Of a stretch of DNA of 64,000 nt, positions 36,572-51,977 are shown one piece after another; positions within the stretch are counted from its first letter, which is position 1, and each line of letters begins with the position of its first letter. A program made the position numbers and the translations under genes. Location of the stretch: the NCBI GenBank assembly GCA_017504405.1, contig JAFVRG010000010.1, positions 1,883 through 65,882 of the forward strand, given 5' to 3'. The notes below the pieces were generated by a model, which saw only the letters and a list, made by a program, of their open reading frames with translations, ran no database searches and was not told the origin of the DNA. This stretch comes from Clostridia bacterium. Its GTDB lineage: Bacteria; Bacillota; Clostridia; Oscillospirales; CAG-272.

Positions 36572-37279
36572 TCAGGCGTTTTGGGCGCAGAGGATTATTT
36601 TTTGTAGGTCGGGGGCGGGGATTGGCTTATCGAGGGCGGTCAGGTGCTTTTCGGGCATTGCGCCGAAAAGCGATTTGTACCAGACGAGCGCTACGAGGTA
36701 TCTGCCGCCGCCGAGCGAGAGATGCACTCCGTCACGGTAGAGGCGCTCCACGCCTGCGTTTATTGCAAGGTTGACCGCACGGTGCGAGGGTATGTTACCC
36801 GAAATTTTCGGGTATTTTTCCATAATCGCAGAGAGCGTTGCATCTAACGAATTGTACATATCCCCTCTGGGTGCGACAGCCCTTGCTTCGGCGCTGTCGG
36901 GGCTGTACTCCCAGCCCTGATGCAGATATATTTTCGCTCTCGGCTGATATAGCTCCACTATCTCCAAGAGCCTTTCAAGCGACGGGGAAAAGCTATCCGT
37001 GCCGAGCGATTTGCGTGAGAGCTGTTGGACTGTGACAATATCGTATTCATCGGCAGATAGCGCCTCGTTGAGCGTTACGCAAAAGTCGGTTTCAACTCCG
37101 TTGAAATCATAAAAATACACACGCCTATCGGCATAGTAGTTTCGTATATGCGTATCGAGCGATGCGTCCGCAACGTAGAGATTTACCGTTTCGAGCTCTG
37201 CGCCGTTTTTACGTGCGAGGGCGTGAATATACCTATGGGCATCACGTGAAAAGCTGTTCCCTATCGACAAAATCTTCAT
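36572..37279 (-). CDS. SGNH/GDSL-like hydrolase-fold protein (DUF4886-like)
   Basis: MKILSIGNSFSRDAHRYIHALA (block I GNS), with a DGVHLS-type block near the C-terminus. Confidence 0.55.
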   Translation of the reverse strand: MKILSIGNSFSRDAHRYIHALARKNGAELETVNLYVADASLDTHIRNYYADRRVYFYDFNGVETDFCVTLNEALSADEYDIVTVQQLSRKSLGTDSFSPSLERLLEIVELYQPRAKIYLHQGWEYSPDSAEARAVAPRGDMYNSLDATLSAIMEKYPKISGNIPSHRAVNLAINAGVERLYRDGVHLSLGGGRYLVALVWYKSLFGAMPEKHLTALDKPIPAPDLQKIILCAQNA

Positions 37280-38019
37280 TACTCACGCCACCCCCTCGCT
37301 TTTGCGCACTCCTGCGCACACCTTTTTGCCAATTCTGCCGTGCCTGTGCCTATATCGGTATCAAAGTCGGAAAATTTGTTACCTGTCACCTGCTTTTTGG
37401 AAAGGCACAGATAGAGGATGAGCGAGAGCACGTATTTGCCTATATCCGAGGGGTCCTTCGGGCTGGCATACATATCAAGCCCTGCCGACAGCGAGGCTCT
37501 CAGCGCATCGCAAAACGGAACAATTCCGAAAACTCCCTCTGCGTTTTCCACCGCATCGGCAACCGTTCTCACAATATCCTCTGCCATTTTCTCGGTGCTC
37601 TCATAGCCCATTGTATTCATAAGAACCGGTGAGCCATCCTTATACGCCCACGGCTCGCTGACAAACAGGCGTGCGGCGGGGGCATACTTGTGAAGCCTTT
37701 TTTCAATAAGCGGCAGATAGTCGGTATACTGCAAGGGATTACAGCTCTCACGTGCGCCCTGGTGAATGACTATCGCATCAAAACGGCGTGAGGCGAGGAC
37801 GTCGTGGATAGAAACGGTCAGAGGCGTTCTCATTCCGTTAACCGACATTGATGCGTCCTTCGATTTTGTATAAAGCGAGCGCCAATACGCCTCATAGGTT
37901 GAGGCGGTATTTACCGTAAGGGAGCAGACGTACATCTGCTCCCTTGCGCTTTCGGCTATATTTGAAAGATAGCGCACCGCCATATCCGAGAAGCGGTCGC
38001 CTATAATCAAAACGTTCAT
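37279..38019 (-). CDS. Paralogous SGNH/DUF4886-like protein with an altered block I (GDRFS)
   Basis: MNVLIIGDRFSDMAVRYLSNIA. Its start overlaps the dxs stop by 4 nt, and its stop abuts the next start. Confidence 0.5.
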   Translation of the reverse strand: MNVLIIGDRFSDMAVRYLSNIAESAREQMYVCSLTVNTASTYEAYWRSLYTKSKDASMSVNGMRTPLTVSIHDVLASRRFDAIVIHQGARESCNPLQYTDYLPLIEKRLHKYAPAARLFVSEPWAYKDGSPVLMNTMGYESTEKMAEDIVRTVADAVENAEGVFGIVPFCDALRASLSAGLDMYASPKDPSDIGKYVLSLILYLCLSKKQVTGNKFSDFDTDIGTGTAELAKRCAQECAKARGWRE

Positions 38020-39899
38020 ATTCTAAGCTCCTGCTTTGAATAATTTTTGACAGCCCTGCATACAGCTCCTGCGTCTATACCGCAATACTCATAAAGGTCG
38101 CACGGCTCTGTCGGGTTGGCGAAGCTGTTGTCTATCGCAAGTATCTCGTACTCGCCCTCGGCATACCTTTCGGGCGCAACACGTGAGAGTGCCTCGCCTA
38201 TTATCATTCCTGCGCCGCCGTTGCGTATTCCCTCCTCAAGAAAGATTATCTTTCCGCTCTCGGGAAGCAGATTTTTGATTTTCTCCGCCGTTTCCGCATA
38301 CGGACATAGCTGTTCGAGCAAAATTACCTGCGTAGGTATGCCCTCGGCTCTCAGAGACTCTGCGGCATCGAGCGCCCTCTCGGCAATTTTTCCGTAGGTT
38401 ATAACCGTAGCCCCCCTATAGAAATTCGAGGTATCGGTACGCACGCCGAAGCTATCAAAATCGCCGTCGGGATAGAAGGCGTTTACTATCCTTTCATTTT
38501 CGGGTGCATTTGAATAGCGGATAGCGACGGGGGTCTGCAATTCTTTCGTGTGTTCAAGAATTTTTGCCATCGAGCCAAAGGTTTGGGGCGCATACAGCGT
38601 CATGCTCGGCACGTGCGACAAAAACGCAACGTCGAATATTCCGTGATGCGTTGCGCCGTCGGAAACGGCGAGCCCAGCTCGGTCTATACATACCGTTACG
38701 GGCAGGCTCTGGAGCGCAATATCGTGAAGAATATTGTCATACCCCCTCTGCAAAAAGGTGGAATAAACTCCAAAGTAGGGACGCTTGCCTGCGGCGGCAA
38801 GTCCCGCCGAGAAGGTGAGCGCATGCTCCTCCGCAATACCTACGTCAAAAAACCTATCCTTATATTTTTCGCAAAATCTGTCAAGCCCCGTGCCTGCGCC
38901 CATAGCGGCAGTAACGGCGCATATACGTTCGTCATTTTGCGCCATATCGCATAGGGTGTCGCATAAAACGCTGTTAAAGGTCGGCTTGCAGCTCTTGCTT
39001 GTATAATAGCTGTGATATTCAGTCGGGCTCTTCTCGGCGGGGGCATAGCCCTTTCCCTTCACCGTGCGCAGATGAACGAGCACGGGGCGTCCGAGATTTT
39101 TCGCCTCGGAGAATATCATCTCCATTTTTTCAATATCGTGGCCGTCCGCAGGGCCTATGTAGGCAAAGCCCATCTGCTCAAAGTAGTTCGGACGGACCAG
39201 AATTGCCTTCAATATACGCTTGATTTTCCTCGTCAGCCTGAAAAGGAAATTGCCGAAAAGGGGTATCCCCTTCAAAAACGAGCGGGTTGCCCTCTTTGTC
39301 TTAACGTATTTTTTCGACACACGCATCCTTGCAATCAGCTTTGCAAATCTGCCAGTGTTTTTGGATATTGACATCTCGTTTTCGTTGAGAACAACGACAA
39401 GTCGCACGTTTCTGTGACAGTTATTGAGCGCCTCGTGTACCATTCCGCCCGTGAAGGCTCCGTCACCGATAACCGCAACCGTTGTGCTGTCGCTGCCCGA
39501 AAGTCGGTCAGCCTCGCAAAATCCGAGTGCTGCGGATATTGAGGTCGAGGAATGTCCTGCGCCGAACGGGTCGTATTTGCTCTCTGCTCGGTTGGTAAAG
39601 CCCGAAAGCCCACCTGTTTTTCGTAGGGTGTCAAAGTTCTCACGCCTGCCCGTCAAAAGCTTATGCGTATAGCTCTGGTGTCCGACGTCGAATATTATCC
39701 TGTCCTTCTCAATATCAAATACCCTGTGGAGCGCAACCGTCAGCTCTACCACACCGAGATTTGATGCGAGGTGTCCGCCGTTCTGCGTTACCTTTTCAAC
39801 TAAAAATTTTCTAATGTCCTCGCACAGAGCGTATGCGCCGCTGTGTGACAGCGCCTTTATATCCTCGGGGCTATTCACCCCGTCAAGTGTTTCGTACAT
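38016..39899 (-). CDS. dxs: 1-deoxy-D-xylulose-5-phosphate synthase
   Basis: 627 aa. GGHLASNLGVVELTVALH, DVGHQSY, GDGAFTGGM (ThDP motif) and HHGIFD. Confidence 0.95.
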   Translation of the reverse strand: MYETLDGVNSPEDIKALSHSGAYALCEDIRKFLVEKVTQNGGHLASNLGVVELTVALHRVFDIEKDRIIFDVGHQSYTHKLLTGRRENFDTLRKTGGLSGFTNRAESKYDPFGAGHSSTSISAALGFCEADRLSGSDSTTVAVIGDGAFTGGMVHEALNNCHRNVRLVVVLNENEMSISKNTGRFAKLIARMRVSKKYVKTKRATRSFLKGIPLFGNFLFRLTRKIKRILKAILVRPNYFEQMGFAYIGPADGHDIEKMEMIFSEAKNLGRPVLVHLRTVKGKGYAPAEKSPTEYHSYYTSKSCKPTFNSVLCDTLCDMAQNDERICAVTAAMGAGTGLDRFCEKYKDRFFDVGIAEEHALTFSAGLAAAGKRPYFGVYSTFLQRGYDNILHDIALQSLPVTVCIDRAGLAVSDGATHHGIFDVAFLSHVPSMTLYAPQTFGSMAKILEHTKELQTPVAIRYSNAPENERIVNAFYPDGDFDSFGVRTDTSNFYRGATVITYGKIAERALDAAESLRAEGIPTQVILLEQLCPYAETAEKIKNLLPESGKIIFLEEGIRNGGAGMIIGEALSRVAPERYAEGEYEILAIDNSFANPTEPCDLYEYCGIDAGAVCRAVKNYSKQELRI

Positions 39900-39936: not shown

Positions 39937-40788
39937 TCAGTTATCTAAAATCTCCTCGGACGTGTTTTCCAACAGGACATTTCCCTCCGTCTCCGCATCG
40001 CCTCTCGACGTGGGAGCTGTGCCAAACACACGCTTATACGCCCGATAGAATGTTGAATAGTCGGCAAAGCCCACGCTGTATGCGGCAAACGAGGCGCTTG
40101 CGCCCTCCTCTATCATCTGGCGTGCCAATACTACCTTCTTGTTATTTATATATCCGAACACGGATATTTTGTTGTATTCCTTGAAGGCACGGCATAGGTA
40201 TGATTTGCTGACGAAGAAATGTCTGGCAATCTCGTCGAGCATTATCCTCGAGGTTATGCGCTCGTTGACGTACTTGATAACCATAGCGCCGAGGGCGCTG
40301 TCACCGTGAGAATCAACGGGGGGCTGGTTATTGATAGCGGTTATAAGCAGCTCACCTATAAGCACCCGTGCCATAGCGGAGCGCAATCCCGTTTCTATGT
40401 CGCAAAGATTTTCAAGCCGTCCGAAAATCTCCTCGATGCGCCGACGGCGCTCACCGTCAACCCGTATCACCGCACTGCCGTATTTCTCAAGATACTCCGC
40501 AATTTCGCTCGGAATATCATCGCCCGAAAAATTCAGAACGTAGCGGTTGTAGGCGTGGTTTACGCTCGGCTCCGCATAGTGAAATTTGCACGGCAAAACG
40601 AGGGCTACCGTGCCCGAGGTAATATCGTAACGCTCGCCCTCGTACATATAGTGTCCCACTCCCTCAAGCACAAAAAGCACCTCGTAGGTCGTGTGACAGT
40701 GCTTCTCAAACGAGGATGGCGAGGGCTTCTCGCTTTCGCTGTGGTGCATTGACACCGTGCCGTAGTTAAAAATTTCGCATTTATCCAT
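39937..40788 (-). CDS. AraC family transcriptional regulator (cupin plus HTH)
   Basis: Start moved to the ATG at 40788 (MDKCEIF) with AAGGAG upstream. C-terminal AraC HTH (AAYSVGFADYSTFYRAYKRVFG). Divergent from uxuA. Confidence 0.8.
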   Translation of the reverse strand: MDKCEIFNYGTVSMHHSESEKPSPSSFEKHCHTTYEVLFVLEGVGHYMYEGERYDITSGTVALVLPCKFHYAEPSVNHAYNRYVLNFSGDDIPSEIAEYLEKYGSAVIRVDGERRRRIEEIFGRLENLCDIETGLRSAMARVLIGELLITAINNQPPVDSHGDSALGAMVIKYVNERITSRIMLDEIARHFFVSKSYLCRAFKEYNKISVFGYINNKKVVLARQMIEEGASASFAAYSVGFADYSTFYRAYKRVFGTAPTSRGDAETEGNVLLENTSEEILDN

Positions 40789-40957
40789 ATTGTCTATCTC
40801 CTTGTGCTGTTGCACAGTAGTTCAATTATAGCACACAAAAAGAATATTTGCAATAGTTTTTGCAATAATTGCAATTGAATTTTTACCTTGCGTATTATAA
40901 AATAAACTTAACGGATACTATTATCTGTAAAACGTATTAAGGAAAGGACACTCTGCC

Positions 40958-41998
40958 ATGAAAATGACATTTCGTTGGTATGGAGAAAACGACTGCATAC
41001 CGCTAAATTACATTAAGCAGATTCAGGGAATGAGCGGTGTCGTCACCGCCGTTTACGACGTGCCCGTAGGTCAGGTATGGGAGCTATCCCGACTGGAAAG
41101 GCTGAAGGAGCTGTGCGATGCGGCTGACCTCGAAATGGAGGTTATCGAATCGGTACCCGTCCACGAGGACATAAAGCTCGGGCTTCCCACCCGTGACGCC
41201 TATATCGAGGCGTACAAGCAGAACATTATCAACTGCGGTAAGGTGGGCGTTAAGTGCATCTGCTACAACTTCATGCCTGTATTTGACTGGCTGCGCACCG
41301 ACCTCTATTTCAAGCATAAGGACGGCGCAACCTCTCTCGCCTACAATCACGATACACTCATGAAGCTCGACCCGAAAAATCTCCGTCTCCCCGGCTGGGA
41401 CGAGAGCTATACCGCCGACGAGCTGAATGCCCTGCTCGACTCCTACAAGGGCATGACGCACGAGAAGCTTTTTGACAACCTCGTATACTTTTTGAACGCT
41501 ATAATGCCCGCATGCGACGAGGCAGGCGTCAATATGGCTATACACCCCGACGATCCGCCGTGGGATATGTTCGGTCTTCCCCGTATAATCTGTAAGGAGG
41601 AGGACTACGACCGCCTGTTTGCGGCTGTGCCCAATATGCACAACGGTATAACCTTCTGCACGGGCTCGCTCGGCGCAGGACGCTTCAACGACCTGCCGAA
41701 AATGGCGGCAAAGTACGCAAAGAGAATACATTTCGCTCATCTGCGTCAGCTCAAATACACATCCGACATTGATTTCTTTGAGAACGGTCACATGACCGAG
41801 CTCGGAAACGTCGATATTGCCGAAATAATGAAGGCTCTCGCAAAGAACGGATTTGAGGGCTACGTGCGCCCCGACCACGGAAGAAACATCTGGGGCGAGG
41901 ATGCTAAGCCCGGCTACGGTCTTTTCGACAGAGCGCTCGGCGCTACCTACCTCTCGGGTCTTTGGGAGGGAATAGTAAAGTCCGAAAAGGAGATTTGA
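40958..41998 (+). CDS. uxuA: Mannonate dehydratase
   Basis: MKMTFRWYGENDCIPLNYIKQI, CYNFMPVFDW and IHPDDPP are UxuA signatures. Confidence 0.9.
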   Translation: MKMTFRWYGENDCIPLNYIKQIQGMSGVVTAVYDVPVGQVWELSRLERLKELCDAADLEMEVIESVPVHEDIKLGLPTRDAYIEAYKQNIINCGKVGVKCICYNFMPVFDWLRTDLYFKHKDGATSLAYNHDTLMKLDPKNLRLPGWDESYTADELNALLDSYKGMTHEKLFDNLVYFLNAIMPACDEAGVNMAIHPDDPPWDMFGLPRIICKEEDYDRLFAAVPNMHNGITFCTGSLGAGRFNDLPKMAAKYAKRIHFAHLRQLKYTSDIDFFENGHMTELGNVDIAEIMKALAKNGFEGYVRPDHGRNIWGEDAKPGYGLFDRALGATYLSGLWEGIVKSEKEI

Positions 41999-41999
41999 T

Positions 42000-42851
42000 A
42001 TGAAGCTTCCATTCAAAATTGATTTATCCGACAAGGTTGCGGTTATTACAGGCGGCGGCGGAGTTCTCTGCGCCTCCTTTGCCGAGGCTGTTGCAGAGTG
42101 CGGCGCTAAGGTTGCGGTTCTTGACATAAACCTCGAGGCGGCAGAAAGGGTTGCAGCAGGCATCAGAGCAAACGGCGGTATCGCTATCGCTGTCAAGGCA
42201 AACTGCCTTGAGCGTGAGAGCCTCGACGAGGCAAGGGCTACCGTTGAAAAGGAGCTTGGCTCATGCGACATTCTCATCAACGGAGCAGGCGGAAACAACC
42301 CCCGTGCGACCACCGCAAACGAGTATTTCGACCCCGAAACTCTCGGTGATGCGGACAAGGTTGATTTCTTCGACCTAAAGCCCGAGGGAATTAAGTTCGT
42401 GTTCGACCTCAACGTAACAGCGGCATTCCTCACCACACAGGTATTTGCGCTCGATATGGCGAAGAAGGGTAAGGGTACGGTGCTCAACATTTCCTCGATG
42501 AACGCATTCCGTCCTCTGACGAAAATCCCCGCATACAGTGCGGCAAAGGCGGCTGTATCTAACTTCACCCAGTGGCTTGCAGTTCATTTTGCAACCGCAG
42601 GCGTGCGTGTAAACGCAATAGCACCCGGCTTTTTCGTAACCAACCAGAACCGTGCGCTTCTGTTCGCACCCGACGGAACACCCACTCCGAGAACCGAGAA
42701 AATCCTCAGGGGTACTCCTATGGGACGCTTCGGCGAGAGCGAGGAGCTTCTCGGCACTATGCTCTGGCTCCTCTCCGATGAGGCGGCAGGCTTCGTTACA
42801 GGAATAGTCGTTCCCGTTGACGGCGGCTTCTCCGCTTATTCGGGAGTTTAA
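42000..42851 (+). CDS. SDR-type oxidoreductase, probably D-mannonate/fructuronate oxidoreductase
   Basis: ITGGGGVLC and YSAAKAAV. It is immediately downstream of uxuA, and the function is inferred from that context. Confidence 0.65.
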   Translation: MKLPFKIDLSDKVAVITGGGGVLCASFAEAVAECGAKVAVLDINLEAAERVAAGIRANGGIAIAVKANCLERESLDEARATVEKELGSCDILINGAGGNNPRATTANEYFDPETLGDADKVDFFDLKPEGIKFVFDLNVTAAFLTTQVFALDMAKKGKGTVLNISSMNAFRPLTKIPAYSAAKAAVSNFTQWLAVHFATAGVRVNAIAPGFFVTNQNRALLFAPDGTPTPRTEKILRGTPMGRFGESEELLGTMLWLLSDEAAGFVTGIVVPVDGGFSAYSGV

Positions 42852-42896
42852 CTCCTTTAAAACCTAAAGCTCTTGGCATGACAGCCAAGAGCTTTT

Positions 42897-43727
42897 TTAT
42901 TTTTTCCTCGCACGGCGGTATTCGAGCGGGGTTTTTCCTGTTTTTTTCTTAAAGACGGTGCAAAGCTGACCTCGGTCAAAAAAGCCCACCTCCAAGGAGA
43001 TTTCCTCAACCGAAAGATTTGTATTTGCAAGCAGCTTTTTTGCCACCGATATGCGCTCTGAAATCAGTCTCTGATGAATCGTCATACCCGTATTCTGCTT
43101 AAAAACCGAGTTGAGATAGTAGGAGTGGTATCCGAGAGCCGAGGCAATTTTTTTATTGGTTATGTCCTTGTCGTAATTCTTCTTTATGTATAGCATAACC
43201 CTGCCTGCGAGCGCACCTGCGCCGTCAGCAGCTCCCATCGTTTCTCCGAGCATATAACACAAAATACGCTTGACCGTTGCGGACGTATGCGCATCCGCAA
43301 GCTCCTCGCTCGCTCCCATACCTGCAACGCATTCCTCAAAAAGCGGTTCAAGCGAGTAGGCATTATGCGCTACCAGCGTTTCAGAAAGCTCGTCGGGCGG
43401 GTCGTTTTCAAAAATTTTCGAGCTGTCAAAGCTATCCGCTACGCTTGGACGCAGCGCCTTTTTTTTGCTTGCATTATCTCTGCTCATATCGAAATTGAGC
43501 ACCATAATCTTTACCTTTTTATCAAAATAATACGGAGTTGCGGGGCGCAGATAAACGGCAGAGCCTGTGTGAAGCAGTATTGCTCTATCCTCAAGAACGA
43601 GATTGACAGGGCCCGACAGCACATAGAAAAGCCTGTAATCGTAGGAGAGGGCGTGAGGCGGCTGAGACATTACCGAGGGTTGAAGCTCGGCGTAACGCAG
43701 ATAGGGATTTATTTCGGCAAGTGTCAT
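42897..43727 (-). CDS. AraC family transcriptional regulator, divergent from the Fe-S operon
   Basis: Start at 43727 (MTLAEINPYLRYAE). C-terminal AraC HTH (EISLEVGFFDRGQLCTVFKKKTGKTPLEYRR). Confidence 0.8.
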   Translation of the reverse strand: MTLAEINPYLRYAELQPSVMSQPPHALSYDYRLFYVLSGPVNLVLEDRAILLHTGSAVYLRPATPYYFDKKVKIMVLNFDMSRDNASKKKALRPSVADSFDSSKIFENDPPDELSETLVAHNAYSLEPLFEECVAGMGASEELADAHTSATVKRILCYMLGETMGAADGAGALAGRVMLYIKKNYDKDITNKKIASALGYHSYYLNSVFKQNTGMTIHQRLISERISVAKKLLANTNLSVEEISLEVGFFDRGQLCTVFKKKTGKTPLEYRRARKK

Positions 43728-43849
43728 TTGTTTACCTTTGTTTTTCAAACTTTTTGATTTGTATTTTATATTGATTATAGCATACAAAAGTTATATAATC
43801 AACATATAAAGTAATTATTTTTCAAACTGTTTTGAAAAAGGAGATGCTG

Positions 43850-44887
43850 ATGAAATACATAGTCGGATATCAGGACAGAGGCGACACGTCTTTTCTCGAT
43901 ACGGTGATAAAAAATCAGGACAGCATAAAGGAACTGTATTTTTCCTGGGGAGATTTCCCTAACGGAAGAAAGAGCCTTTTTGACGATGCGAGCGAAACGC
44001 TTTTTGAACGGCAAATGCGGCAGGCGAAGGATTTGAAGCGTCTGAGCGAGGAGAAAATCCCTATGAATCTTCTGTTCAACGCAAACTGCTACGGAGAGGA
44101 CAGTCAATCCAGAAAATTCTTTGAAAAAATCGGCTCAACTGTTGATTTTATAAAGCAGAGCTTCGGGCTGTCATCGGTAACTACCTCGTCACCGCTCATA
44201 GCAAAATTCATCAAAAACAACTTCGAGGGCGTTGACGTCAGGGCGTCGGTCAATATGGAGATAGGTTCTGTTGAGGGACTTGGCTACGTCAAGGACTGTT
44301 TTGACAGCTATTATATCAAAAGGGAGAAAAACCGAAGCTTTGCCGAGCTTGCGCGTCTGCGCAAGTGGTGCGACAGCGAGGGCAAGGAAATGTATCTGCT
44401 CGCAAACAGCGGATGCCTCTATAACTGCTTGGCTCATATCTTCCACGACAATCTGGTGGCGCACGAGGCGGATATATCGAAAATGGACAACGGCTACGAC
44501 TTTTCGGGCGTGTGCTGGGAGTTTCTCAAAAACCCCGATAACAGAAATGAATGGTTAGAACGCACTACATTTATTCGCCCCGAGGACATTCACCTCTATG
44601 AGGGGTTGGTTAGCGCCGTGAAGCTCGCAACCCGTGTGAATTTTTCGCCGTCACGCATTATTGACGCCTACGTCAAACGCCGCTATCACGGCTCGGTTAT
44701 GGAGCTTTTAGAGCCAAACCACAGTGGCGTTTTCTATCCCCAATACGTCGATAATTCAAAAATACCCGACAGCTTTGCCAAGCGTGCGGGCAGCTGTGAC
44801 AGAAATTGCAGGGAATGCGGATACTGCTCCCGTGTTATGAACGGTGCAACCGTGACTCTTTCTGCTGATACCTCATTAAAAGTATGA
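43850..44887 (+). CDS. U32 (collagenase-like) family-like TIM-barrel protein with a C-terminal Cys cluster
   Basis: The ATG at 43850 lies 6 nt after AAAAAGGAG. The layout ELYFSWGDFPNGR ... VRASVNMEIG ... YIKREKNRSFAEL ... YLLANSGCLYNCLAH parallels U32 proteins as I recall them. The C-terminal CDRNCRECGYC could bind Fe-S. This call needs an HMM check. Confidence 0.4.
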   Translation: MKYIVGYQDRGDTSFLDTVIKNQDSIKELYFSWGDFPNGRKSLFDDASETLFERQMRQAKDLKRLSEEKIPMNLLFNANCYGEDSQSRKFFEKIGSTVDFIKQSFGLSSVTTSSPLIAKFIKNNFEGVDVRASVNMEIGSVEGLGYVKDCFDSYYIKREKNRSFAELARLRKWCDSEGKEMYLLANSGCLYNCLAHIFHDNLVAHEADISKMDNGYDFSGVCWEFLKNPDNRNEWLERTTFIRPEDIHLYEGLVSAVKLATRVNFSPSRIIDAYVKRRYHGSVMELLEPNHSGVFYPQYVDNSKIPDSFAKRAGSCDRNCRECGYCSRVMNGATVTLSADTSLKV

Positions 44888-44900
44888 ACGGAGATTTGCT

Positions 44901-45980
44901 ATGCTGACAAGTGAAATGATTAAAAGGGCTGCCCTCGAGGCAGGCGCTGATAAATGCGGAATAGCGCCTATGTCGAGATTTGACGGTGCGCCCGACGATA
45001 TGAATCCGCAATTTCTTTTTCCGGAAGCAAAGAGCTGTATCGGCTTTGTCTTCCGTATTCCCCGTGGAGTTCAGCGAGGAATAGAAGAGGGAACGCAGTT
45101 TTTCCAATACCCGTCTATGGCATACGGAGGAATAAACGAAATATTTGCCCCTGCGGTGCTGTACCACGTGGGAAAGGTAATTGAGGACGAGGGCTACGAG
45201 GCGTTCGTATACAGAAATACGGGAGCAAGAGGAAGCGTATCCGATATGGACGGAAGTCCCGGAAACACCCTCTCGCCCGAGGAGCAGATAGAGGTAAACG
45301 AAAATGCAAAGACCTCAACTGCCCACCACAGGAGCGTTCAGTTCACGAGAGCGACGAGAGATACAAACGTCGCTCCCGACCTTCAGTTCCAGTTCAGGCT
45401 GGCGGCGGTTGCCTGCGGTCTCGGCGAAATAGGCTGGAGCAAAATGCTCCTCACACCCGAATTCGGCCCGCTGCAGAGGGTGGCATTTCTGTTTACCGAT
45501 GCAGAGCTTGAATACGATGAAATGTATAGCGGTGAGCCGCTATGCCGAAAGTGCGGCGCATGTGTCCGTGAATGTCCCGGCGGCTGCATACCGCCAATAA
45601 ATTCCGGAAAGACGGTGACAGTTGACCTCGCAGGCAAGATATGCGAGTGGGGAGATATAGATATGTGGCGCTGCTACGCCTTCTATACTCATGCGGGACG
45701 GTACTATAACCCCTTTGTGCCTAAGGAGGTATTTGATGAAAATCCTAACGGCAATCTCGATTTGTTGGAGGGAAAAACCGATATAGCAGACGAGAAGGAA
45801 ATAATGAAGGTATACGGCGAGCTCCAAAAATATTTTCCGAGCTGGGTCGGATACAATATGGCAAAATGCGGCGGCTGCATACGCGGATGCGTTTCGATGC
45901 TTGAAAAGAAGGGCGGCTGTATGGAAGGACGCTTCAAGGAGCCGCTGAGAACGAAAAAGCCCTGGAAGCTGGACAGGTGA
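44901..45980 (+). CDS. QueG / reductive-dehalogenase-superfamily-like Fe-S protein, paralog 1 (359 aa)
   Basis: AAVACGLGEIGWSKMLLTPEFGPLQRVAFLFTDAEL, CRKCGACVRECPGG (CxxCxxCxxxCP), WRCYAFY and C-terminal CGGCIRGC. No Tat or signal peptide. Confidence 0.55.
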   Translation: MLTSEMIKRAALEAGADKCGIAPMSRFDGAPDDMNPQFLFPEAKSCIGFVFRIPRGVQRGIEEGTQFFQYPSMAYGGINEIFAPAVLYHVGKVIEDEGYEAFVYRNTGARGSVSDMDGSPGNTLSPEEQIEVNENAKTSTAHHRSVQFTRATRDTNVAPDLQFQFRLAAVACGLGEIGWSKMLLTPEFGPLQRVAFLFTDAELEYDEMYSGEPLCRKCGACVRECPGGCIPPINSGKTVTVDLAGKICEWGDIDMWRCYAFYTHAGRYYNPFVPKEVFDENPNGNLDLLEGKTDIADEKEIMKVYGELQKYFPSWVGYNMAKCGGCIRGCVSMLEKKGGCMEGRFKEPLRTKKPWKLDR

Positions 45981-45989
45981 GGTACGGTT

Positions 45990-46889
45990 ATGCTGACAAG
46001 TGAATTTATAAAAGAAAAAGCGAGAGAGCTGGGCGCAAGCGTCTGCGGAATCGGAAAAATATATGAGGAAGTCGACCCTCAGCGCAGCCCGAAATCAATT
46101 CTGCCAAACGCAAAGGCCATAATCGGCTTTGGCTTTATCGTTCCGAGGGGAATTTACAGAGCGATGAGCAGCGGCGCACAGTATTACACCTACACAACCC
46201 TCGGCGTTAAGTATCCCGACGAGGAGCTTGCCGAAATATTTTTACTGAAAATGGGAGCAATCATTGAGGACTCTGGATACGATGCGTGTCTGCAAAAGGC
46301 GGTGCCCAACCTTCGTATAAAGGGCGACAAGGACACAAACCCCGAGGTTGTTGACACCTATGAGCTCGTACACGCAGTACCGGTTTCACCCGACAAGCCC
46401 GCTCCCGACGTCATCATTGACTTCGGCAAGGCGGCAAGGGCGTGCGGAATAGGCAGCACGGGACTCAGCGGTAAAATACTCAGTCCAAGCTGGGGACCTT
46501 ACATACGCTATTGCTTTATCATAACCGATGCGCCTCTCGACACCGACGAGCCCCTTGACACTCCTGTGTGTGACGGATGCGGAGAATGTATGAGAGTATG
46601 CCCTGGTAACGCAATAGACGAAAACGGACTTGACAGCTGGCAATGCGCCGTGTATTACAAGGGGGCGCACAAATCAAATCCTTTTATGCCGGACGACTTT
46701 CTTTCGGGGCATCCCGAGCGTGATGCCATTATAAACGGCGAAAAGCGATTTGATGCAAAATCGGCAAGAGAGCTGTTCCCCAGTCTTAACTTTCTTCCCA
46801 ATACTCAGTGGGGCTATGCCCCCTGCCTGTGCGGCAGAGCGTGTGACGTTGCCTGCTACGAGCATCTGAAAGGGGGACTCAAAAAATGA
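45990..46889 (+). CDS. QueG / reductive-dehalogenase-superfamily-like Fe-S protein, paralog 2 (299 aa)
   Basis: AARACGIGSTGLSGKILSPSWGPYIRYCFIITDAPL, CDGCGECMRVCPGNAI, WQCAVYY and CLCGRACDVAC. Confidence 0.55.
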   Translation: MLTSEFIKEKARELGASVCGIGKIYEEVDPQRSPKSILPNAKAIIGFGFIVPRGIYRAMSSGAQYYTYTTLGVKYPDEELAEIFLLKMGAIIEDSGYDACLQKAVPNLRIKGDKDTNPEVVDTYELVHAVPVSPDKPAPDVIIDFGKAARACGIGSTGLSGKILSPSWGPYIRYCFIITDAPLDTDEPLDTPVCDGCGECMRVCPGNAIDENGLDSWQCAVYYKGAHKSNPFMPDDFLSGHPERDAIINGEKRFDAKSARELFPSLNFLPNTQWGYAPCLCGRACDVACYEHLKGGLKK

Positions 46890-47821
46890 GAGAAAAGATT
46901 ATTGAGAGCTGTAAAAAATGGGGGGCTGACCTCGTTGGCTTTGCCCCTATTGACAGATTTTGCGCCGATTCTGCGGTACGCAAGCTGATGCCCGAGGCAA
47001 AAACCGTCATAGGTCTCGGGTTCCGTGTTCTCCGAGGCACGTACAGAGGAATTGAGGAGGGAAGCACCTACTACCAATATACCACCATGGGCGTTGAGAA
47101 TATGGAGGAAACGGTTATGCCTATGGTGCAGGTGCGCCTATCAATGTATCTTGAGGAAGAGGGGTATCTCGCTCTGCCTCAAAGAAGGCATCAGCAGATA
47201 ATGGCAGAAAGCGATTCTACAAACCCCGAGGTTGCGTACGATTCGGTTTACAGAGGATGCACGCAGGAAACGCAGATGAACTTTTCCGAGGCGGCTGTTC
47301 TGTGCGGTCTTGGTGAAATAGGCATGAATGGCGCTATCCTTACAGACGAGTTCGGACCGTTTGTCAGATGCTGCTTCGTCATTACCGACGCCGAGCTTGA
47401 GCCCACACCCGTAAAGGAAAAGCACCTGTGCGACAGATGCGGAAAATGCATAAAGGCTTGCCCGGGCGGCGCTATTTCCGAGAACGGCGAGCTCGACCCC
47501 TGGCAGTGCGCCGTATACTACAACGGCGCAAACGGAACGAAGAACCCGTTTATGCCCCCCGATGCCTTTGCTGATTTTGAAAACAGAATGGATATTATAG
47601 GCGGACGGGCGAGGGTTGACAAGGATACCGCACCCGAAATTTTGCAGAATATATACTTCTATCCCCCCGCACAGCACGCATACCAATGCTCAATATGCGG
47701 ACGGGCGTGTGATATGAGCTGCTATGTGCATCTCGAGGAAAAGGGTGCGCTGACCAAAGCCTTCAAGCTTCCCTTCCGCAGACGCAGTGAGTGGAAATTC
47801 TCCGAGAAGGATTTTGAGTGA
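46886..47821 (+). CDS. QueG / reductive-dehalogenase-superfamily-like Fe-S protein, paralog 3 (311 aa)
   Basis: ATGA overlap with paralog 2. AAVLCGLGEIGMNGAILTDEFGPFVRCCFVITDAEL, CDRCGKCIKACPGGAI, WQCAVYY and CSICGRACDMSC. Confidence 0.55.
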   Translation: MREKIIESCKKWGADLVGFAPIDRFCADSAVRKLMPEAKTVIGLGFRVLRGTYRGIEEGSTYYQYTTMGVENMEETVMPMVQVRLSMYLEEEGYLALPQRRHQQIMAESDSTNPEVAYDSVYRGCTQETQMNFSEAAVLCGLGEIGMNGAILTDEFGPFVRCCFVITDAELEPTPVKEKHLCDRCGKCIKACPGGAISENGELDPWQCAVYYNGANGTKNPFMPPDAFADFENRMDIIGGRARVDKDTAPEILQNIYFYPPAQHAYQCSICGRACDMSCYVHLEEKGALTKAFKLPFRRRSEWKFSEKDFE

Positions 47822-47850: not shown

Positions 47851-47888
47851 AAAAAAACTAAACCTGCCACAGCTATGGCAGGTTTTTT
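47851..47888. terminator. Bidirectional rho-independent terminator
   Basis: AACCTGCCA cagcta TGGCAGGTT followed by TTTT, between the Fe-S operon (+) and the esterase gene (-). Confidence 0.85.
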
Positions 47889-47903: not shown

Positions 47904-48704
47904 TCAGTACAAATCCTTATCGAGAAAGCCCATATAGTGCAGCCAGCCCTCGAGCTCTAGGCGCCAATTGCGGTTGAGGCGGTAGGCGGGAGCGAGTCCC
48001 TGCCCGTGATAGCCCTTAGGATATACCGCCACCTGTACGGGAATGTTCAGCTCACGCAGGCGTGTTGCATATCTGTACGTATTCATTACGTTGACACCCG
48101 GGTCATCCGAAGTATGCCAGAAAAACGCCTCGGGCGTTTTCTCATCGGCAATGAACGAGGGGTCAACCGAGGGAGCGAGCTCTCTCCATCTTTCCTCACC
48201 GAGCAGATTGATATTGGAGCCCATATGAGTTACCCTTTCGTCACTCATACAAATTACGGGATAGCAAAGTATCTGACCGTTGGGCAGATAATCCTCTTTG
48301 TCGATTTCATCTATGTCCTCAAAATCTATTTTTCCGCGGTAGGTGGAAACGAGCGCTGAGAGGTGACCGCCCGCAGAGGAGCCCATAACGGCAACTCTGT
48401 CCTTATCTATTCCGAATTTCTCTGCGTTTGCACGGACAAAGCGCACGGCACGGCGTGCATCGAGCAGGGGCAGAGGAAAACGGCAGGGTGACACACGGTT
48501 CTTCACCACAAAGGCGTTCATGCCGAGTGTATTGAGAAACTGAGCATAGCCCTCTCCCTCGTGCCTTGCAAGCCCTGCGTAGCCGCCGCCGGGAAAAATC
48601 ACAACGGTTGCATCGGTTGCCTTCTGAAGTGCGGGATAAAAAGCAATTTCAGGCTCGTATACGAACTCACCCGGTGTCTTTTCCCATAGCTTGAAAATTT
48701 CCAT
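47904..48704 (-). CDS. Alpha/beta hydrolase (acetyl-esterase/lipase-like)
   Basis: VVIFPGGGY oxyanion region, GSSAGGH nucleophile elbow (GxSxG), and a C-terminal HGQG. Confidence 0.8.
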   Translation of the reverse strand: MEIFKLWEKTPGEFVYEPEIAFYPALQKATDATVVIFPGGGYAGLARHEGEGYAQFLNTLGMNAFVVKNRVSPCRFPLPLLDARRAVRFVRANAEKFGIDKDRVAVMGSSAGGHLSALVSTYRGKIDFEDIDEIDKEDYLPNGQILCYPVICMSDERVTHMGSNINLLGEERWRELAPSVDPSFIADEKTPEAFFWHTSDDPGVNVMNTYRYATRLRELNIPVQVAVYPKGYHGQGLAPAYRLNRNWRLELEGWLHYMGFLDKDLY

Positions 48705-48780: not shown

Positions 48781-49914
48781 TTAATCGACACGCTCTGCGA
48801 GCTTGTTTACCCATTTGCGGTAGAATGCCTCATACTCACCGTTATCGAGCGCCTCTCTGATTTTTTCCATAAGCTCGTTATAGAAATAGAGGTTGTGCAG
48901 AACGCAAAGTCGCATACCGAGCAGCTCACGTGCCTTAAACAGATGACGGATATATGAGCGTGAATAGTGCTTGCACGCAGGACACTGACAGCCCTCGGAG
49001 ATAGGACGGGGATCGTCAAAGTATCTCTCGTTGTTTATATTCATCTTGCCCTGCCAGCTGAAAAGATTTCCGTGACGGGCATTTCTCGACGGCATTACGC
49101 AGTCGAAGAAGTCAACGCCTCTGTAAACCGCCTCGAGAATGTTCTGCGGCGTGCCGACACCCATAAGATACCTCGGCTTGTCGGCGGGCATATACGGCTC
49201 GACAACCTCGATTATGTGGTACATAACGTCTGCGCTCTCACCGACGGCAAGACCGCCGATAGCGTATCCGTCAAGGTCCATTTTCGCCGTTTCAATCATA
49301 TTCTTCACACGCAGATCGTCGTACGTGCCGCCCTGATTTATTCCGAATAGAAGCTGATTTTTATTTATCGTTTCGGGCAGGGAGTTGAGGCGAGTCATCT
49401 CATCCTTGCACCTTTTGAGCCAGCGCAGAGTGCGCTCGCTCGATTTTTTCACGTAGTCGTAGGGCGCAGGATTTTCCACGCACTCGTCAAACGCCATAGC
49501 AATGGTCGAGGCGATATGCGACTGTATTCTCATGCTCTCCTCGGGGCCCATAAATATGCGCTTGCCGTCCATATGAGAGGAAAAGTGTACGCCCTCCTCG
49601 GTGATTTTACGGAGCTTTGCAAGTGAGAAAACCTGAAATCCTCCGCTATCGGTGAGGACGGGTCGGTCCCAGTTGAAAAATTTATGAAGTCCGCCCATTT
49701 TGTAAATGAGGTCGTCACCGGGGCGGATATGAAGGTGATAGGTGTTCGACAGCTCGACCTGACAGCCTATCTCCTTTAAATCCATTGTTGAAATACCGCC
49801 CTTAACCGTTGCGCTCGTGCCAACGTTCATAAATACGGGGGTTTGTATCGTTCCGTGCACGGTTTCCATTACTCCGCGCCGTGCCCTGCCTTCTTGCTTT
49901 AATACCTTAAACAT
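48781..49914 (-). CDS. tgt: Queuine tRNA-ribosyltransferase
   Basis: TPVFMNVGT, LTDSGGFQV, GLAVGE and the zinc site CQCPACKHYSRSYIRHL. Confidence 0.95.
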   Translation of the reverse strand: MFKVLKQEGRARRGVMETVHGTIQTPVFMNVGTSATVKGGISTMDLKEIGCQVELSNTYHLHIRPGDDLIYKMGGLHKFFNWDRPVLTDSGGFQVFSLAKLRKITEEGVHFSSHMDGKRIFMGPEESMRIQSHIASTIAMAFDECVENPAPYDYVKKSSERTLRWLKRCKDEMTRLNSLPETINKNQLLFGINQGGTYDDLRVKNMIETAKMDLDGYAIGGLAVGESADVMYHIIEVVEPYMPADKPRYLMGVGTPQNILEAVYRGVDFFDCVMPSRNARHGNLFSWQGKMNINNERYFDDPRPISEGCQCPACKHYSRSYIRHLFKARELLGMRLCVLHNLYFYNELMEKIREALDNGEYEAFYRKWVNKLAERVD

Positions 49915-49946: not shown

Positions 49947-51977
49947 TTAGTTTATTCTATTGAATTCCCGTTCAATTTCTGATTTTTTAAGCTCTATCGC
50001 AACAGGTCTGCCGTGAGGGCATACCGTTATGTCGGGCATACCGAGCAGCTTCTCTATCAGCCAACAAATATGAGAGGCATCAGAGCGCTTGCCTATTTTT
50101 ATAGATGCCTTGCAGGCTATCTGATAGAGCGACTTCTCCATTCTCTGCTCCTCGCTTATCTCTGCGTCGCCCGTTCCCTCTGCCATACGGTCTACTATCG
50201 ACGAGAAAACGCCCGTTGCATCAAACGAGTCTATATTGTGAGGGTATGCGGTCAATTTCAGCCGTCCCCTGCCGTCAACGGTGAAGGAAAAGCCGAGAGC
50301 CTCCAATTTTTCCCTGTTCTCCTCGGCTACCGAAACGCCCACACCGCCAAGATGCACCTCAAGCGGGAACAAAAGCCCCTGCGATGCTACCCGTCTGTCG
50401 TTTTTCAGCGTGTCCTTCATAGCCTCGAAGTTTATGCGCTCGTGCGCCGCATGCTTATCTATCATAAGCACTCGGTCGTCGCCCTCAAGGAGCAGATAGC
50501 CGTTAAAGATTTCGCCCACGTATCTGTATTTTCTGTTTTCGTCCTCAAATATTCTCGAGCGCAGAGCCTCCTCGCTCACGTAGGGGGTGTCGCCAGCTCT
50601 CGGTATCACCCTGTCCCCTTGGTCGGGCACGCTCGGCGCAGCCCCTTTCATATCGGGCGCATCGGTTTTCGGATCGTCACTTCTCTTTTCTGCGTTCGAT
50701 ACGGCATCCCACGCAGGGGAATGAACGTACGATGTAGGAGTGTTTCTCTGCTCTGCCCGTCTAATTTCCTCAAGAATTTCAAGAGATTTTTCGGGTGTCA
50801 CCGTTTCCTGCACGCTCTGTCTGCTTGCAGCTGCTGAGTGCTTTCCCTCAGCGGTGGCTCTCATAGCCGTATCAAGAGAAAACTGACGGCTCGCCACGCT
50901 TTGTCGCTTTTCCTCTATCGGGATAAAGGAGCGTACAGGCTCCTTGACCTGAGCTTTCGGCTCAGTCATCCTCATCTCGTGACGGTAGGAAAAGCTCTCC
51001 AACGCATTTTTCACCGCATAGAAAACTGCGCTGAATACGGCACTCTCGTTTGAAAACTTCACCTCAAGCTTTGCAGGGTGAACATTGACGTCAACCAAGC
51101 GGCTGTCTATATCCACAAAGAGAATGCTGACGGGAAATTTTCCCGGCGCTATGTACGAGGAAAACGCCTGCTCGAGCGCCGCCGCAACGGTATTGCTCTT
51201 GACGTACCTCTTATTTATAAACGTATTTACGTAGTTTCGGTTATTTCTGACGTTATCGCTCCTGCCAACGTAGCCTGTCACCCTGATACCCGCATCCTCG
51301 CCCTTTACCTCTATCAGCTTTTTGGCAAAATCCTGTCCCTCAAGCGAATAGAGCGTATTGAGGAGCCGTCCGTCGCCCACGGTTGAGAATTTCAAAACTC
51401 CGTCAGAGAAAAATTCAACCGACACGTCGGGGCGTGACATTGCGAGCTTTGATACTACATTATAACAGGCGAGCGCCTCTGTCTTATCCTTTTTGAGAAA
51501 GCTGCGCCTGGCGGGGACGTTGTAGAACAAATCCTCAACTATCATAGTCGTTCCGTCCGAGCATCCTACCTCGGTTACCTCAGTAACCCTGCCGCCCTCG
51601 GAAAAGAGGGCTGTTCCCGAATCTGCGCTCTCGGTTTTTGATATAATGGTCAGCTTTGAAACTGCGGCGGTTGCGGCGAGAGCCTCGCCACGAAAACCGA
51701 GCGTCATTATCGAATCAAGGTCGCTTTTGTCGGATATTTTGCTCGTCGCATGCCTCTTTATCGCTATCGGCAGCTCCGCTCCGTCCATGCCGTGACCGTC
51801 ATCGGTAACCTTTATCATCGTGACTCCGCCGTCCTTTATCTCGGCACGGATTTTCTTCGCCCCTGCATCTATGGAGTTTTCAAGCAGCTCCTTTAATACC
51901 GAGGCAGGGCGGTCAACTACCTCGCCTGCGGCGATAAGGTTCGCTATTTCAAAGCTGAGTACGTTAATTTTCCCCAT
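49947..51977 (-). CDS. mutL: DNA mismatch repair protein MutL
   Basis: IAAGEVVDRPASVLKELLENSIDAG, DDGHGM, GFRGEAL and a C-terminal dimerisation/endonuclease domain. Confidence 0.95.
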   Translation of the reverse strand: MGKINVLSFEIANLIAAGEVVDRPASVLKELLENSIDAGAKKIRAEIKDGGVTMIKVTDDGHGMDGAELPIAIKRHATSKISDKSDLDSIMTLGFRGEALAATAAVSKLTIISKTESADSGTALFSEGGRVTEVTEVGCSDGTTMIVEDLFYNVPARRSFLKKDKTEALACYNVVSKLAMSRPDVSVEFFSDGVLKFSTVGDGRLLNTLYSLEGQDFAKKLIEVKGEDAGIRVTGYVGRSDNVRNNRNYVNTFINKRYVKSNTVAAALEQAFSSYIAPGKFPVSILFVDIDSRLVDVNVHPAKLEVKFSNESAVFSAVFYAVKNALESFSYRHEMRMTEPKAQVKEPVRSFIPIEEKRQSVASRQFSLDTAMRATAEGKHSAAASRQSVQETVTPEKSLEILEEIRRAEQRNTPTSYVHSPAWDAVSNAEKRSDDPKTDAPDMKGAAPSVPDQGDRVIPRAGDTPYVSEEALRSRIFEDENRKYRYVGEIFNGYLLLEGDDRVLMIDKHAAHERINFEAMKDTLKNDRRVASQGLLFPLEVHLGGVGVSVAEENREKLEALGFSFTVDGRGRLKLTAYPHNIDSFDATGVFSSIVDRMAEGTGDAEISEEQRMEKSLYQIACKASIKIGKRSDASHICWLIEKLLGMPDITVCPHGRPVAIELKKSEIEREFNRIN

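Follow-up and report, generated by a model that had tools for sequence, protein, structure and literature searches.

A conserved AraC-linked cassette of gut and rumen Clostridia that combines three QueG/RdhA-superfamily paralogs with a divergent U32-type protein

The 64 kb stretch of Clostridia bacterium DNA analysed here (contig JAFVRG010000010.1, positions 1,883 to 65,882; hereafter the window) contains a cassette of four plus-strand genes, named G1, G2, G3 and G4, which lies divergent from a minus-strand gene encoding an AraC-type regulator. G2, G3 and G4 encode a separate clade, not described before, within the class III B12 superfamily, approximately equidistant from the epoxyqueuosine reductase QueG and the reductive dehalogenases (RdhA) and belonging to neither family, and G1 is, as judged from its predicted structure, a distant and very divergent TIM-barrel protein of the U32 superfamily. 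Together they add to the QueG/RdhA and U32 superfamilies a new clade with a new architecture, which is uncharacterised and not an artefact. No description of this gene combination was found in the full-text literature, in keeping with an earlier interpretation of the DNA from its letters alone (the sequence-only reading), which knew of no characterised pathway with these genes. In the general picture, which has the evidence narrowly on its side, the cassette would be a self-contained catabolic unit that AraC activates and that provides a cytoplasmic metalloenzyme system independent of oxygen. The more specific proposal, that a corrinoid is used for reductive C-O cleavage, is drawn by analogy and is doubtful.

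The products of G2-G4 are paralogous over nearly their full length, with BLASTP E-values (6e-43 for G2/G3, 9e-53 for G2/G4 and 3e-71 for G3/G4) that lie far beyond chance and bear out the relationship first noticed by eye. In Pfam, these proteins match generic Fer4 motifs only. The NCBIfam reductive dehalogenase (RDH) model TIGR02486 is matched over ~75-100 residues by G2 (39.1 bits), G3 (46.8 bits, 3.5e-12) and G4 (53.1 bits), and partial matches to the QueG model TIGR00276 are also found (27.2 bits for G2, 42.8 bits with 3.3e-11 for G3 and 47.9 bits for G4), all of these scores falling under the respective cut-offs of 160 bits and, for the TIGR00276 equivalog, 200 bits. When searched alone against the sequences of the structural database (PDB), G4 retrieves PceA (8q4h, 4.2e-12) and QueG (5d08, 3.9e-10), and a profile built from the three orthologous groups retrieves PceA (8q4h, 8e-16; 4uqu, 5.6e-14), QueG (1.3e-13) and NpRdhA (1.4e-7). 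Alignment of the paralog profile with E. coli QueG using hhalign (probability 96.8%, E-value 2.9e-10) pairs columns 4-227 with QueG residues 11-224, a stretch that takes in the complete cobalamin-binding domain and reaches half-way through the ferredoxin domain. The structure of G2 predicted by AlphaFold2, with a predicted local distance difference test (pLDDT) score of 72.7 and a predicted template modelling (pTM) score of 0.77, gives the same answer in Foldseek, where all 46 matches below 1e-3 are QueG, PceA or NpRdhA, headed by QueG 5t8y (5.6e-8); the next matches, to the B12 chaperones CblD and MMACHC, are not significant (E-values of 0.02-0.2). The assignment of the paralogs to the QueG/RdhA superfamily, already made in the sequence-only reading, is upheld by these searches, and the core recovered is that of QueG/RdhA and not of plain ferredoxins. 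The nitroreductase-like N-terminal module is supported by both hhalign and Foldseek, which show the fold only. Public annotations of these proteins read 'hypothetical', 'ferredoxin', '4Fe-4S binding protein' or, wrongly, 'QueG'.

The motifs on which the first assignment had been based are present, comprising the MLTSE.IK N-termini, the GLGEIG...EFGP...TDAEL segment (its GLGE motif degenerate, as GIGS, in G3), CxxCGxCxxxCPG and W(Q/R)C..Y. The terminal C-x2-C-x3-C that was listed alongside them is true of G2 only, G3 and G4 having instead C-x3-C-x3-C with an extra upstream cysteine. Eight cysteines in the pattern of two [4Fe-4S] clusters, contributed by the CxxCxxCxxxCP, W(Q/R)C and terminal three-cysteine motifs, are found without exception in the three paralogs and in their orthologs. 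As had also been stated, there is no twin-arginine translocation (Tat) or other signal peptide; inspection of the N-termini of G2-G4 found neither a twin-arginine (RR) motif nor a signal-like segment, and the N-termini begin directly with the core domain. A HEAT-like C-terminal tRNA-binding domain, which occupies residues 257-385 of B. subtilis QueG (PMC5175355), is absent from G2-G4, with 10-32 residues following the last cysteine and no extra domain found in Pfam or in the G2 model.

The DYH triad of QueG is absent from G2-G4. In the hhalign alignment, the tyrosine of an invariant E-x-x-G-Y is paired with that of DYH and a conserved P-D lies one residue off the catalytic aspartate (Asp134 in B. 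subtilis), whereas the order of secondary structure elements in the model would instead favour the invariant tyrosine preceding helix 70-96 (Y70 in G2) as the active-site residue. All three paralogs carry an invariant cysteine, within A-x-x-C-G-(L/I)-G, at the position of an alanine in PceA (AGLGE) and QueG (AGIG), and it may serve as a ligand, as a catalytic thiol or in a structural role. Two segments of G2, residues 60-73 and 106-161 (window ~45078-45119 and ~45216-45383), are among the best conserved of the protein and yet have AlphaFold2 pLDDT values below 50; examples include RIPRGVQRGIEEGTQF.QYPSMAYGG and YRNTGARG.VSDMDG..SPEE. A cofactor or partner subunits may be needed for these segments to take up an ordered state.

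For G1, no match to the protein itself was obtained in Pfam (including PF01136), in NCBIfam, in a phmmer search of the PDB or with a profile of its close orthologs against the PDB, and hhalign comparisons of the G1 profile with E. coli UbiU and UbiV are not significant. The relationship becomes visible in the AlphaFold2 model (pLDDT 88.3), for which the top Foldseek match is the U32 protein Mk0906 (5d88; E-value 2.4e-10, TM-score 0.70 normalised to the target), other TIM barrels being about six orders of magnitude worse at ~2e-4. It is also visible in the wider family, which comprises 1507 clusters at 50% identity; a profile of diverse representatives finds 5d88 as the sole significant PDB sequence (0.0016), and the Pfam Peptidase_U32 model (PF01136) is matched by 16 of 51 diverse members, the best at 6.5e-14. 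The U32 homology of G1 is therefore supported transitively, because family members match PF01136 and the family profile reaches 5d88, and the U32-like character originally ascribed to the first gene is seen through its fold and relatives rather than with the Pfam model on G1 itself. Cysteines 80, 189, 193 and 222 are at least 90% conserved across the broad family, and C174 is conserved in close orthologs only. U32 proteins bind a [4Fe-4S] cluster through four cysteines arranged as C-x6-C-x15-C-x3/4-C or, in the UbiV type, C-xn-C-x12-C-x3-C (PMC6747719), and the C80...C174-x14-C189-x3-C193 pattern of G1 resembles the latter without matching it exactly (PMC6747719). The protein also has a conserved C-terminal motif, C316-x3-C-x2-C-x2-C326, the CDRNCRECGYC that had been pointed out earlier, and with these patterns it is presumed to be an Fe-S protein. 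Some longer 'fusion' relatives of G1 are uninformative, being probably chimeric gene calls.

Conservation was surveyed using one genome per species, with locus counts referring to the 80 best loci. Relatives of G1 occur in 336 species genomes, almost all of them metagenome-assembled genomes (MAGs) of gut or rumen Clostridia. The full G1-G2-G3-G4 run is found in 62 of the 80 loci, most of the others ending at a contig edge, and a divergent AraC gene accompanies 61, so that the four genes and their regulator are co-conserved, as the reading of this single locus had implied. All three paralogs are present in every complete locus. Compared with the window proteins, those of other species have median identities of 88% (G2), 72% (G3), 66% (G4) and 58% (G1). 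No other subunit comes near the conservation of G2, in which 53% of positions reach at least 95% (figures for G2 from ~68 species), a level like that of a core housekeeping protein. Recent horizontal spread was considered as a cause of this conservation and rejected, since synonymous sites are saturated in all four genes, with only 32-37% identity at 4-fold degenerate third positions (37% in G2). It follows that the lineages diverged anciently and that the conservation of G2 reflects unusually strong purifying selection. A plasmid search with G2 gave no match. Because the triplication and its order are ancient and fixed, the genes translationally coupled and G2 under extreme constraint, we infer that the sequences suggest an obligate G2-G3-G4 heteromer with G2 at its centre. 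A variant arrangement occurs in L028, L030, L032 and L035, in which the regulator gene points the same way as G1 and both are on the strand opposite to G2-G3-G4; the G2 proteins of these loci are only 61-64% identical to that of the window and form a distinct subclade.

The regulator matches the Pfam models HTH_AraC (2.5e-21), HTH_18 (2.8e-19) and Cupin_2 (2.3e-5). It is separated from G1 by an AT-rich intergenic region of 122 nt, in which a promoter scan identified the element TTGATTATA-N14-TATAATCAA. This element reads TTGATT-17-TATAAT on each strand and agrees with the sigma-70-type consensus at 10 of 12 positions on both, and the araC and G1 promoters appear to form a single palindrome with full overlap, an unusual arrangement in which the -35 of each is the -10 of the other. 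Of 51 orthologous intergenic regions, 31 contain the palindrome, for which shuffled sequences give an expectation of 0.015. In these loci the sequence TTTGT recurs 34 bp (29 of 31) and 13 bp (26 of 31) upstream of the -35 element. In the window the two direct repeats (43737-43741 and 43758-43762) lie 21 bp apart, and the proximal one abuts the -35 of the G1 promoter, which is the classic arrangement for activators of the AraC/XylS type. The full operator pattern occurs once in the 64 kb window, compared with 0.07 occurrences expected by chance. This conserved operator and promoter architecture supports putative AraC control of G1-G4, and the location of the repeats inside the predicted 5' leader of araC would imply autorepression.

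The genes that accompany the cassette in other genomes have carbohydrate utilisation as their common denominator, although no single substrate is suggested by them. A small cupin gene is located between G2 and G3 in 27 loci, and the downstream co-directional genes (n=78) include GFO_IDH_MocA (14), DUF5696 (7) and YgjV (4) proteins, together with (alpha/alpha)6, GH65, GH3 and aldose-epimerase families (GH, glycoside hydrolase). A distant relationship links DUF5696 to the GH129 alpha-N-acetylgalactosaminidase 5wzn (4.5e-10). Individual contigs show the layouts G1-DUF5696-G2-(cupin)-YgjV-G3-G4, beside uxaB-uxaA-uxaC; G1-rSAM-G2-cupin-G3-G4 (rSAM, radical SAM), followed by two Gfo/Idh/MocA genes and ATP-binding cassette (ABC) sugar permeases; G1-G2-cupin-G3-G4-DUF5696, followed by a GH63-like gene; and a cassette adjoining a GH10 xylanase and a SASA esterase. 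A radical SAM/SPASM gene is found inside the operon in about ten loci, either in the G1/G2 gap or after G4, and its best NCBIfam match is TIGR04317, 'tungsten cofactor oxidoreductase radical SAM maturase' (246 bits, under the cut-off), with a further match to TIGR04311, a putative metalloenzyme maturase. In L034 the radical SAM gene adjoins a lone G1 homolog. Among 121 open reading frames (ORFs) upstream of the AraC gene, no family recurs beyond generic ABC-transporter and AraC-type domains, with at most eight members each. A uronic-acid-related substrate is a weak lead from gene context: an uxaB/uxuB-type Mannitol_dh gene, uxaA and uxaC lie directly upstream of the cassette in L091, L093 and L094, with a YgjV gene inside the operon, and in E. 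coli K-12 (L097:5194-8742) ygjV directly follows uxaC-uxaA. A tblastn census located hexuronate genes by the cassette in only two lineages.

These observations can be assembled into a mechanism, each step of which is conditional. The AraC protein would sense a sugar-derived inducer, bind the two direct repeats by the -35, switch on G1-G4, the genes of a presumably oxygen-sensitive enzyme system, and block its own overlapping promoter. The substrate, a glycan-derived small molecule, would be released by DUF5696 or GH-like enzymes and imported by YgjV or ABC transporters. A G2-G3-G4 heteromer would then act on it as a class III-type reductase, in which six [4Fe-4S] clusters would probably be joined by one or more base-off corrinoids, to which low-potential electrons would pass from ferredoxin or flavodoxin along the Fe-S chain. 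Reductive cleavage of a C-O (or similar C-X) bond could proceed as proposed for QueG, with attack by Co(I) and then an acid-assisted loss of oxygen (PMC5175355, PMC4646009), and G1 may contribute a coupled O2-independent oxidation, hydroxylation or dehydration (PMC11574389, PMC10990095). Taken at its furthest, this reading would make G2-G4 a fourth functional class of class III enzymes, which combine a base-off corrinoid with 2x[4Fe-4S], and thereby a heterotrimeric cytoplasmic reductase that works with a U32-type Fe-S protein in oxygen-independent C-O chemistry on glycan-derived sugars, a possibility that we regard as tentative. Candidate reactions would be deoxygenation, or the ether or methyl-ether cleavage of a modified sugar, e.g. 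a methylated uronic acid.

A number of findings weigh against this proposal. The accessory genes vary, none being present in more than ~40% of loci, and the class of substrate is only suggested by them; there is no electron-donor gene in the cassette, and neither a cobalamin riboswitch nor any other Rfam match in the window. The counterparts of the catalytic tyrosine and aspartate are ambiguous, hhalign and secondary structure order disagreeing on the tyrosine, and the G2 model is weak exactly in the two conserved segments that would form the loops of the corrinoid pocket. Locus L082 (10001-12990) has the arrangement AraC-G2-G3-G4-DUF5696-CE4 (CE4, carbohydrate esterase family 4) with no G1 homolog within 10 kb, its surroundings including GH129, GH95 and surface-layer homology (SLH) proteins. 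Conversely, G1 homologs of 51-55% identity without nearby G2-G4 occur in L034, L038, L039, L040 and L063, one of these lone genes being in a Victivallis MAG and their contexts heterogeneous. Since the trio can lack an adjacent G1 and G1 relatives can stand alone, a physical or functional coupling of G1 to the trio is putative. Class III enzymes, moreover, have no diagnostic cobalamin sequence motif (PMC4646009), such that B12 binding is unreadable from sequence.

This last point also favours the most serious of the alternatives, in which the fold has been kept and cobalamin lost, leaving a six-cluster scaffold for electron transfer, or one carrying another metallocofactor, that serves G1 or another enzyme, the chemistry being performed by the U32-type protein or by an unconventional cofactor. 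The cysteine that replaces alanine in the 'A-G-L-G' segment of PceA and QueG, the maturase-like radical SAM/SPASM gene of about ten operons (TIGR04317, TIGR04311) and the low-confidence pocket loops of the G2 model are all consistent with such a corrinoid-free module. It is nevertheless rather unlikely: within G2, conservation is strongest in the N-terminal domain outside the ferredoxin part, where some residues are invariant in all three paralogs, which is unexpected for a mere electron conduit; the trio is found without G1 in L082; and the next closest folds are those of the B12 chaperones CblD and MMACHC, though these matches do not reach significance. The same chaperone matches, and membership of the same nitroreductase-like B12 fold class, invite a role in corrinoid processing or salvage of the CblC/MMACHC type, with dealkylation, decyanation or remodelling of imported cobamides. 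Given the insignificance of those matches, the lack of nearby B12 transport or biosynthesis genes or of a cobalamin riboswitch, and the poor fit of an AraC regulator and GH-like neighbours, such a role is highly improbable.

A catabolic cytoplasmic reductive dehalogenase of the NpRdhA/BhbA type, with organohalides of natural or xenobiotic origin as its substrates, would account for the fact that the best single hidden Markov model and PDB matches are to RdhA (TIGR02486 at 39-53 bits, PceA at 8e-16 and NpRdhA at 1.4e-7) and for the absence of a Tat signal, as in catabolic RdhAs. Those scores are, however, far under the 160-bit cut-off and QueG matches are about equally good; no reductase module is fused or adjacent, none of the RdhA systems compared has three fixed paralogs or a U32 partner, and the context consists of GH-like, sugar-dehydrogenase and sugar-transport genes of gut anaerobes, which together make a dehalogenase decidedly unlikely. 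An RNA-modification role, with the paralogs as specialised QueG-type reductases and G1 as a TrhP/RlhA-type RNA hydroxylase tied to tgt (which encodes tRNA-guanine transglycosylase), draws on the presence of tgt one gene away and queA in the same window, on the RNA-modifying enzymes included in both parent families (PMC5175355, PMC11574389) and on the label 'epoxyqueuosine reductase QueG' given to some G4 homologs by the Joint Genome Institute (JGI). No canonical queG is present in the window. The HEAT-like domain is missing, TIGR00276 gives 27-48 bits against a cut-off of 200, the AraC operator pattern was not found upstream of tgt, and the tgt, esterase and uxuA/uxuB neighbours are shared only with a near-identical relative (L046) among the 80 loci, so that the proximity to tgt and queA to which the sequence-only reading drew attention is real here and incidental to this genome. 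An inducible regulator with a conserved AraC-type operator and sugar-related accessory genes are likewise unlike a housekeeping role. RNA modification is accordingly very improbable, and where that reading preferred inducible redox chemistry of small molecules to a housekeeping modification of tRNA, the preference is supported.

To our knowledge, the established activities of B12 enzymes with the nitroreductase fold number only three: reductive dehalogenation, epoxyqueuosine reduction and CblC-type cofactor processing. Payne et al., who described the structure of QueG, predicted that further class III families exist and would be hard to find without a cobalamin motif (PMC4646009). The cassette provides a testable candidate for such a family, being a widespread and strongly selected three-paralog clade with its own regulator, paired with a U32-type protein from a family only recently recognised as O2-independent oxidases, and set among carbohydrate-utilisation loci in Clostridia of the gut and rumen that are abundant yet for the most part uncultured. 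If the substrate were identified, new chemistry of sugars under anaerobic conditions could come to light, along with a nutritional need for corrinoids in the gut that is likewise new and, were the proposal of a fourth functional class true, a type of reaction that no anaerobic enzyme family has yet been assigned. Screens for the inducer with reporters could make ready use of the conserved operator and promoter.

Coordinates of the cassette and of associated features are collected in the table below.

Features of the cassette in the window, with radical SAM genes at related loci (positions in the last rows are those of the locus named)
Feature	Position	Strand	Description
AraC/XylS-family regulator	42897..43727	-	N-terminal cupin sensor and two helix-turn-helix motifs
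Putative AraC operator	43737..43767	+	Two direct repeats with TTTGT; phylogenetic footprint
Palindromic promoter element TTGATTATA-N14-TATAATCAA	43771..43802	both strands	Promoter scan and cross-species conservation
G1	43850..44887	+	345 aa; predicted divergent U32-superfamily TIM-barrel protein
G2	44901..45980	+	359 aa; QueG/RdhA-superfamily paralog; 8 Cys for 2x[4Fe-4S]
G3	45990..46889	+	299 aa; QueG/RdhA-superfamily paralog; 8 Cys
G4	46886..47821	+	311 aa; QueG/RdhA-superfamily paralog; 8 Cys; 4-nt overlap with G3 stop
GC-rich palindromic hairpin	47860..47885		Between convergent G4 and esterase genes; terminator scan
Invariant Cys, G2 C172	~45414-45416		
Invariant Cys, G3 C152	~46443-46445		
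Invariant Cys, G4 C140	~47303-47305		
Radical SAM gene, L030	5139-6131	-	
Radical SAM gene, L034	211-1212	-	
Radical SAM gene, L087	8707-9696		
Radical SAM gene, L032, L051, L053, L065, L067			

The tight packing of four plus-strand genes divergent from the regulator, as first described, is confirmed by the ORF list, with gaps of 13 nt and 9 nt and a 4-nt overlap. The ORF of G1 could begin at 43832 or 43850; ATG 43850 (345 aa) is the most likely start because an AAAGGAG ribosome-binding site lies 6 nt upstream (43837-43843) and the orthologs are 345 aa in length, starting MKY. The AraC ORF is extendable to a TTG at 43787 (42897-43787), and its most likely start, as read from the sequence, is ATG 43727 (MTLAEINPYL). 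Beyond G4, the hairpin at 47860-47885 has an 11-pair stem, was reported on the minus strand with a T-rich tail, and is palindromic with A/T runs on either side; it is likely to be a bidirectional terminator that closes the operon. The genes that had been noted around the cassette were all located, namely a convergent, minus-strand esterase (47904-48704), tgt at 48781-49914 (TGT in Pfam, 2.8e-160; TIGR00430, 494 bits) and queA at 18570-19604, 24 kb from the cassette. The esterase is an alpha/beta-hydrolase of BD-FAE / Abhydrolase_3 type, whose best NCBIfam similarities are to the acetylxylan esterase AxeA1 (2e-40) and the pectin acetylesterase PaeX (2e-36), both under the curated cut-off. Directly upstream of the cassette is a hexuronate module comprising uxuA (mannonate dehydratase, 40958-41998) and the D-mannonate oxidoreductase gene uxuB (42000-42851), with a second AraC-type regulator (39937-40815, minus strand; AraC_binding 3.9e-16) divergent from uxuA; a strong hairpin at 42866-42895 ends the uxuA-uxuB pair and parts it from the cassette. 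The further flanks are housekeeping or unrelated genes, including those for a DUF4886 protein (37279-38019) and dxs (38016-39899), as well as mutL (49947-51977) and mutS (51981-54617), the latter two assigned by inspecting their translations alone.

Comparison with known systems places the cassette between several of them. In common with QueG (5D08, 5D6S), G2-G4 possess a collinear nitroreductase-like domain and the eight-cysteine pattern CxxCxxCxxxCP ... C ... CxxCxxxC, and are cytoplasmic without a signal peptide. Unlike QueG, they lack the HEAT domain, score 27-48 bits against the 200 required, carry an insert of ~60 residues before the second cysteine motif, and occur as three fixed paralogs per operon with an AraC regulator and linkage to sugar genes rather than to tgt/queA. 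With RdhA (PceA 4UQU/8Q4H, NpRdhA 4RAS) they share the core fold and 'GLGE.G..G...T.EFGP...TD' before the first Fe-S motif, and RdhA proteins are their best sequence matches (PceA 8q4h, 8e-16). They differ from these enzymes in lacking the ~140-residue N-terminal Tat extension, in scoring 39-53 bits against 160, in the cysteine that replaces the alanine of 'AGLGE' and in a context that is not organohalide-related; no RdhB-like small membrane anchor or reductase module, fused or adjacent, is conserved in the 80 loci. A Tat signal and a neighbouring RdhB anchor mark respiratory RdhA and a fused reductase marks the catabolic type, and the RdhA active site pairs a tyrosine with an arginine or lysine. 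G1 resembles the U32 proteins (UbiU/UbiV, TrhP, RlhA and Mk0906) in its predicted TIM barrel, which is closest to that of Mk0906, and in having relatives that reach PF01136. It differs from the U32 oxidases in the additional C222 and the C-terminal C-x3-C-x2-C-x2-C, in the absence of the U32 C-terminal domain and, compared with UbiU/UbiV, in having QueG/RdhA-like proteins as partners in place of a second U32 protein or UbiT. The U32 oxidases are further characterised by hydroxylation that depends on prephenate and proceeds without O2 (PMC10990095). Finally, the regulator is similar to AraC, RhaS/RhaR and MelR in combining a cupin sensor with a double helix-turn-helix, in its divergent gene and in two direct repeats that abut the -35 at a position suggestive of autoregulation, and it is set apart from these systems by its two divergent promoters, which overlap completely as one palindrome.

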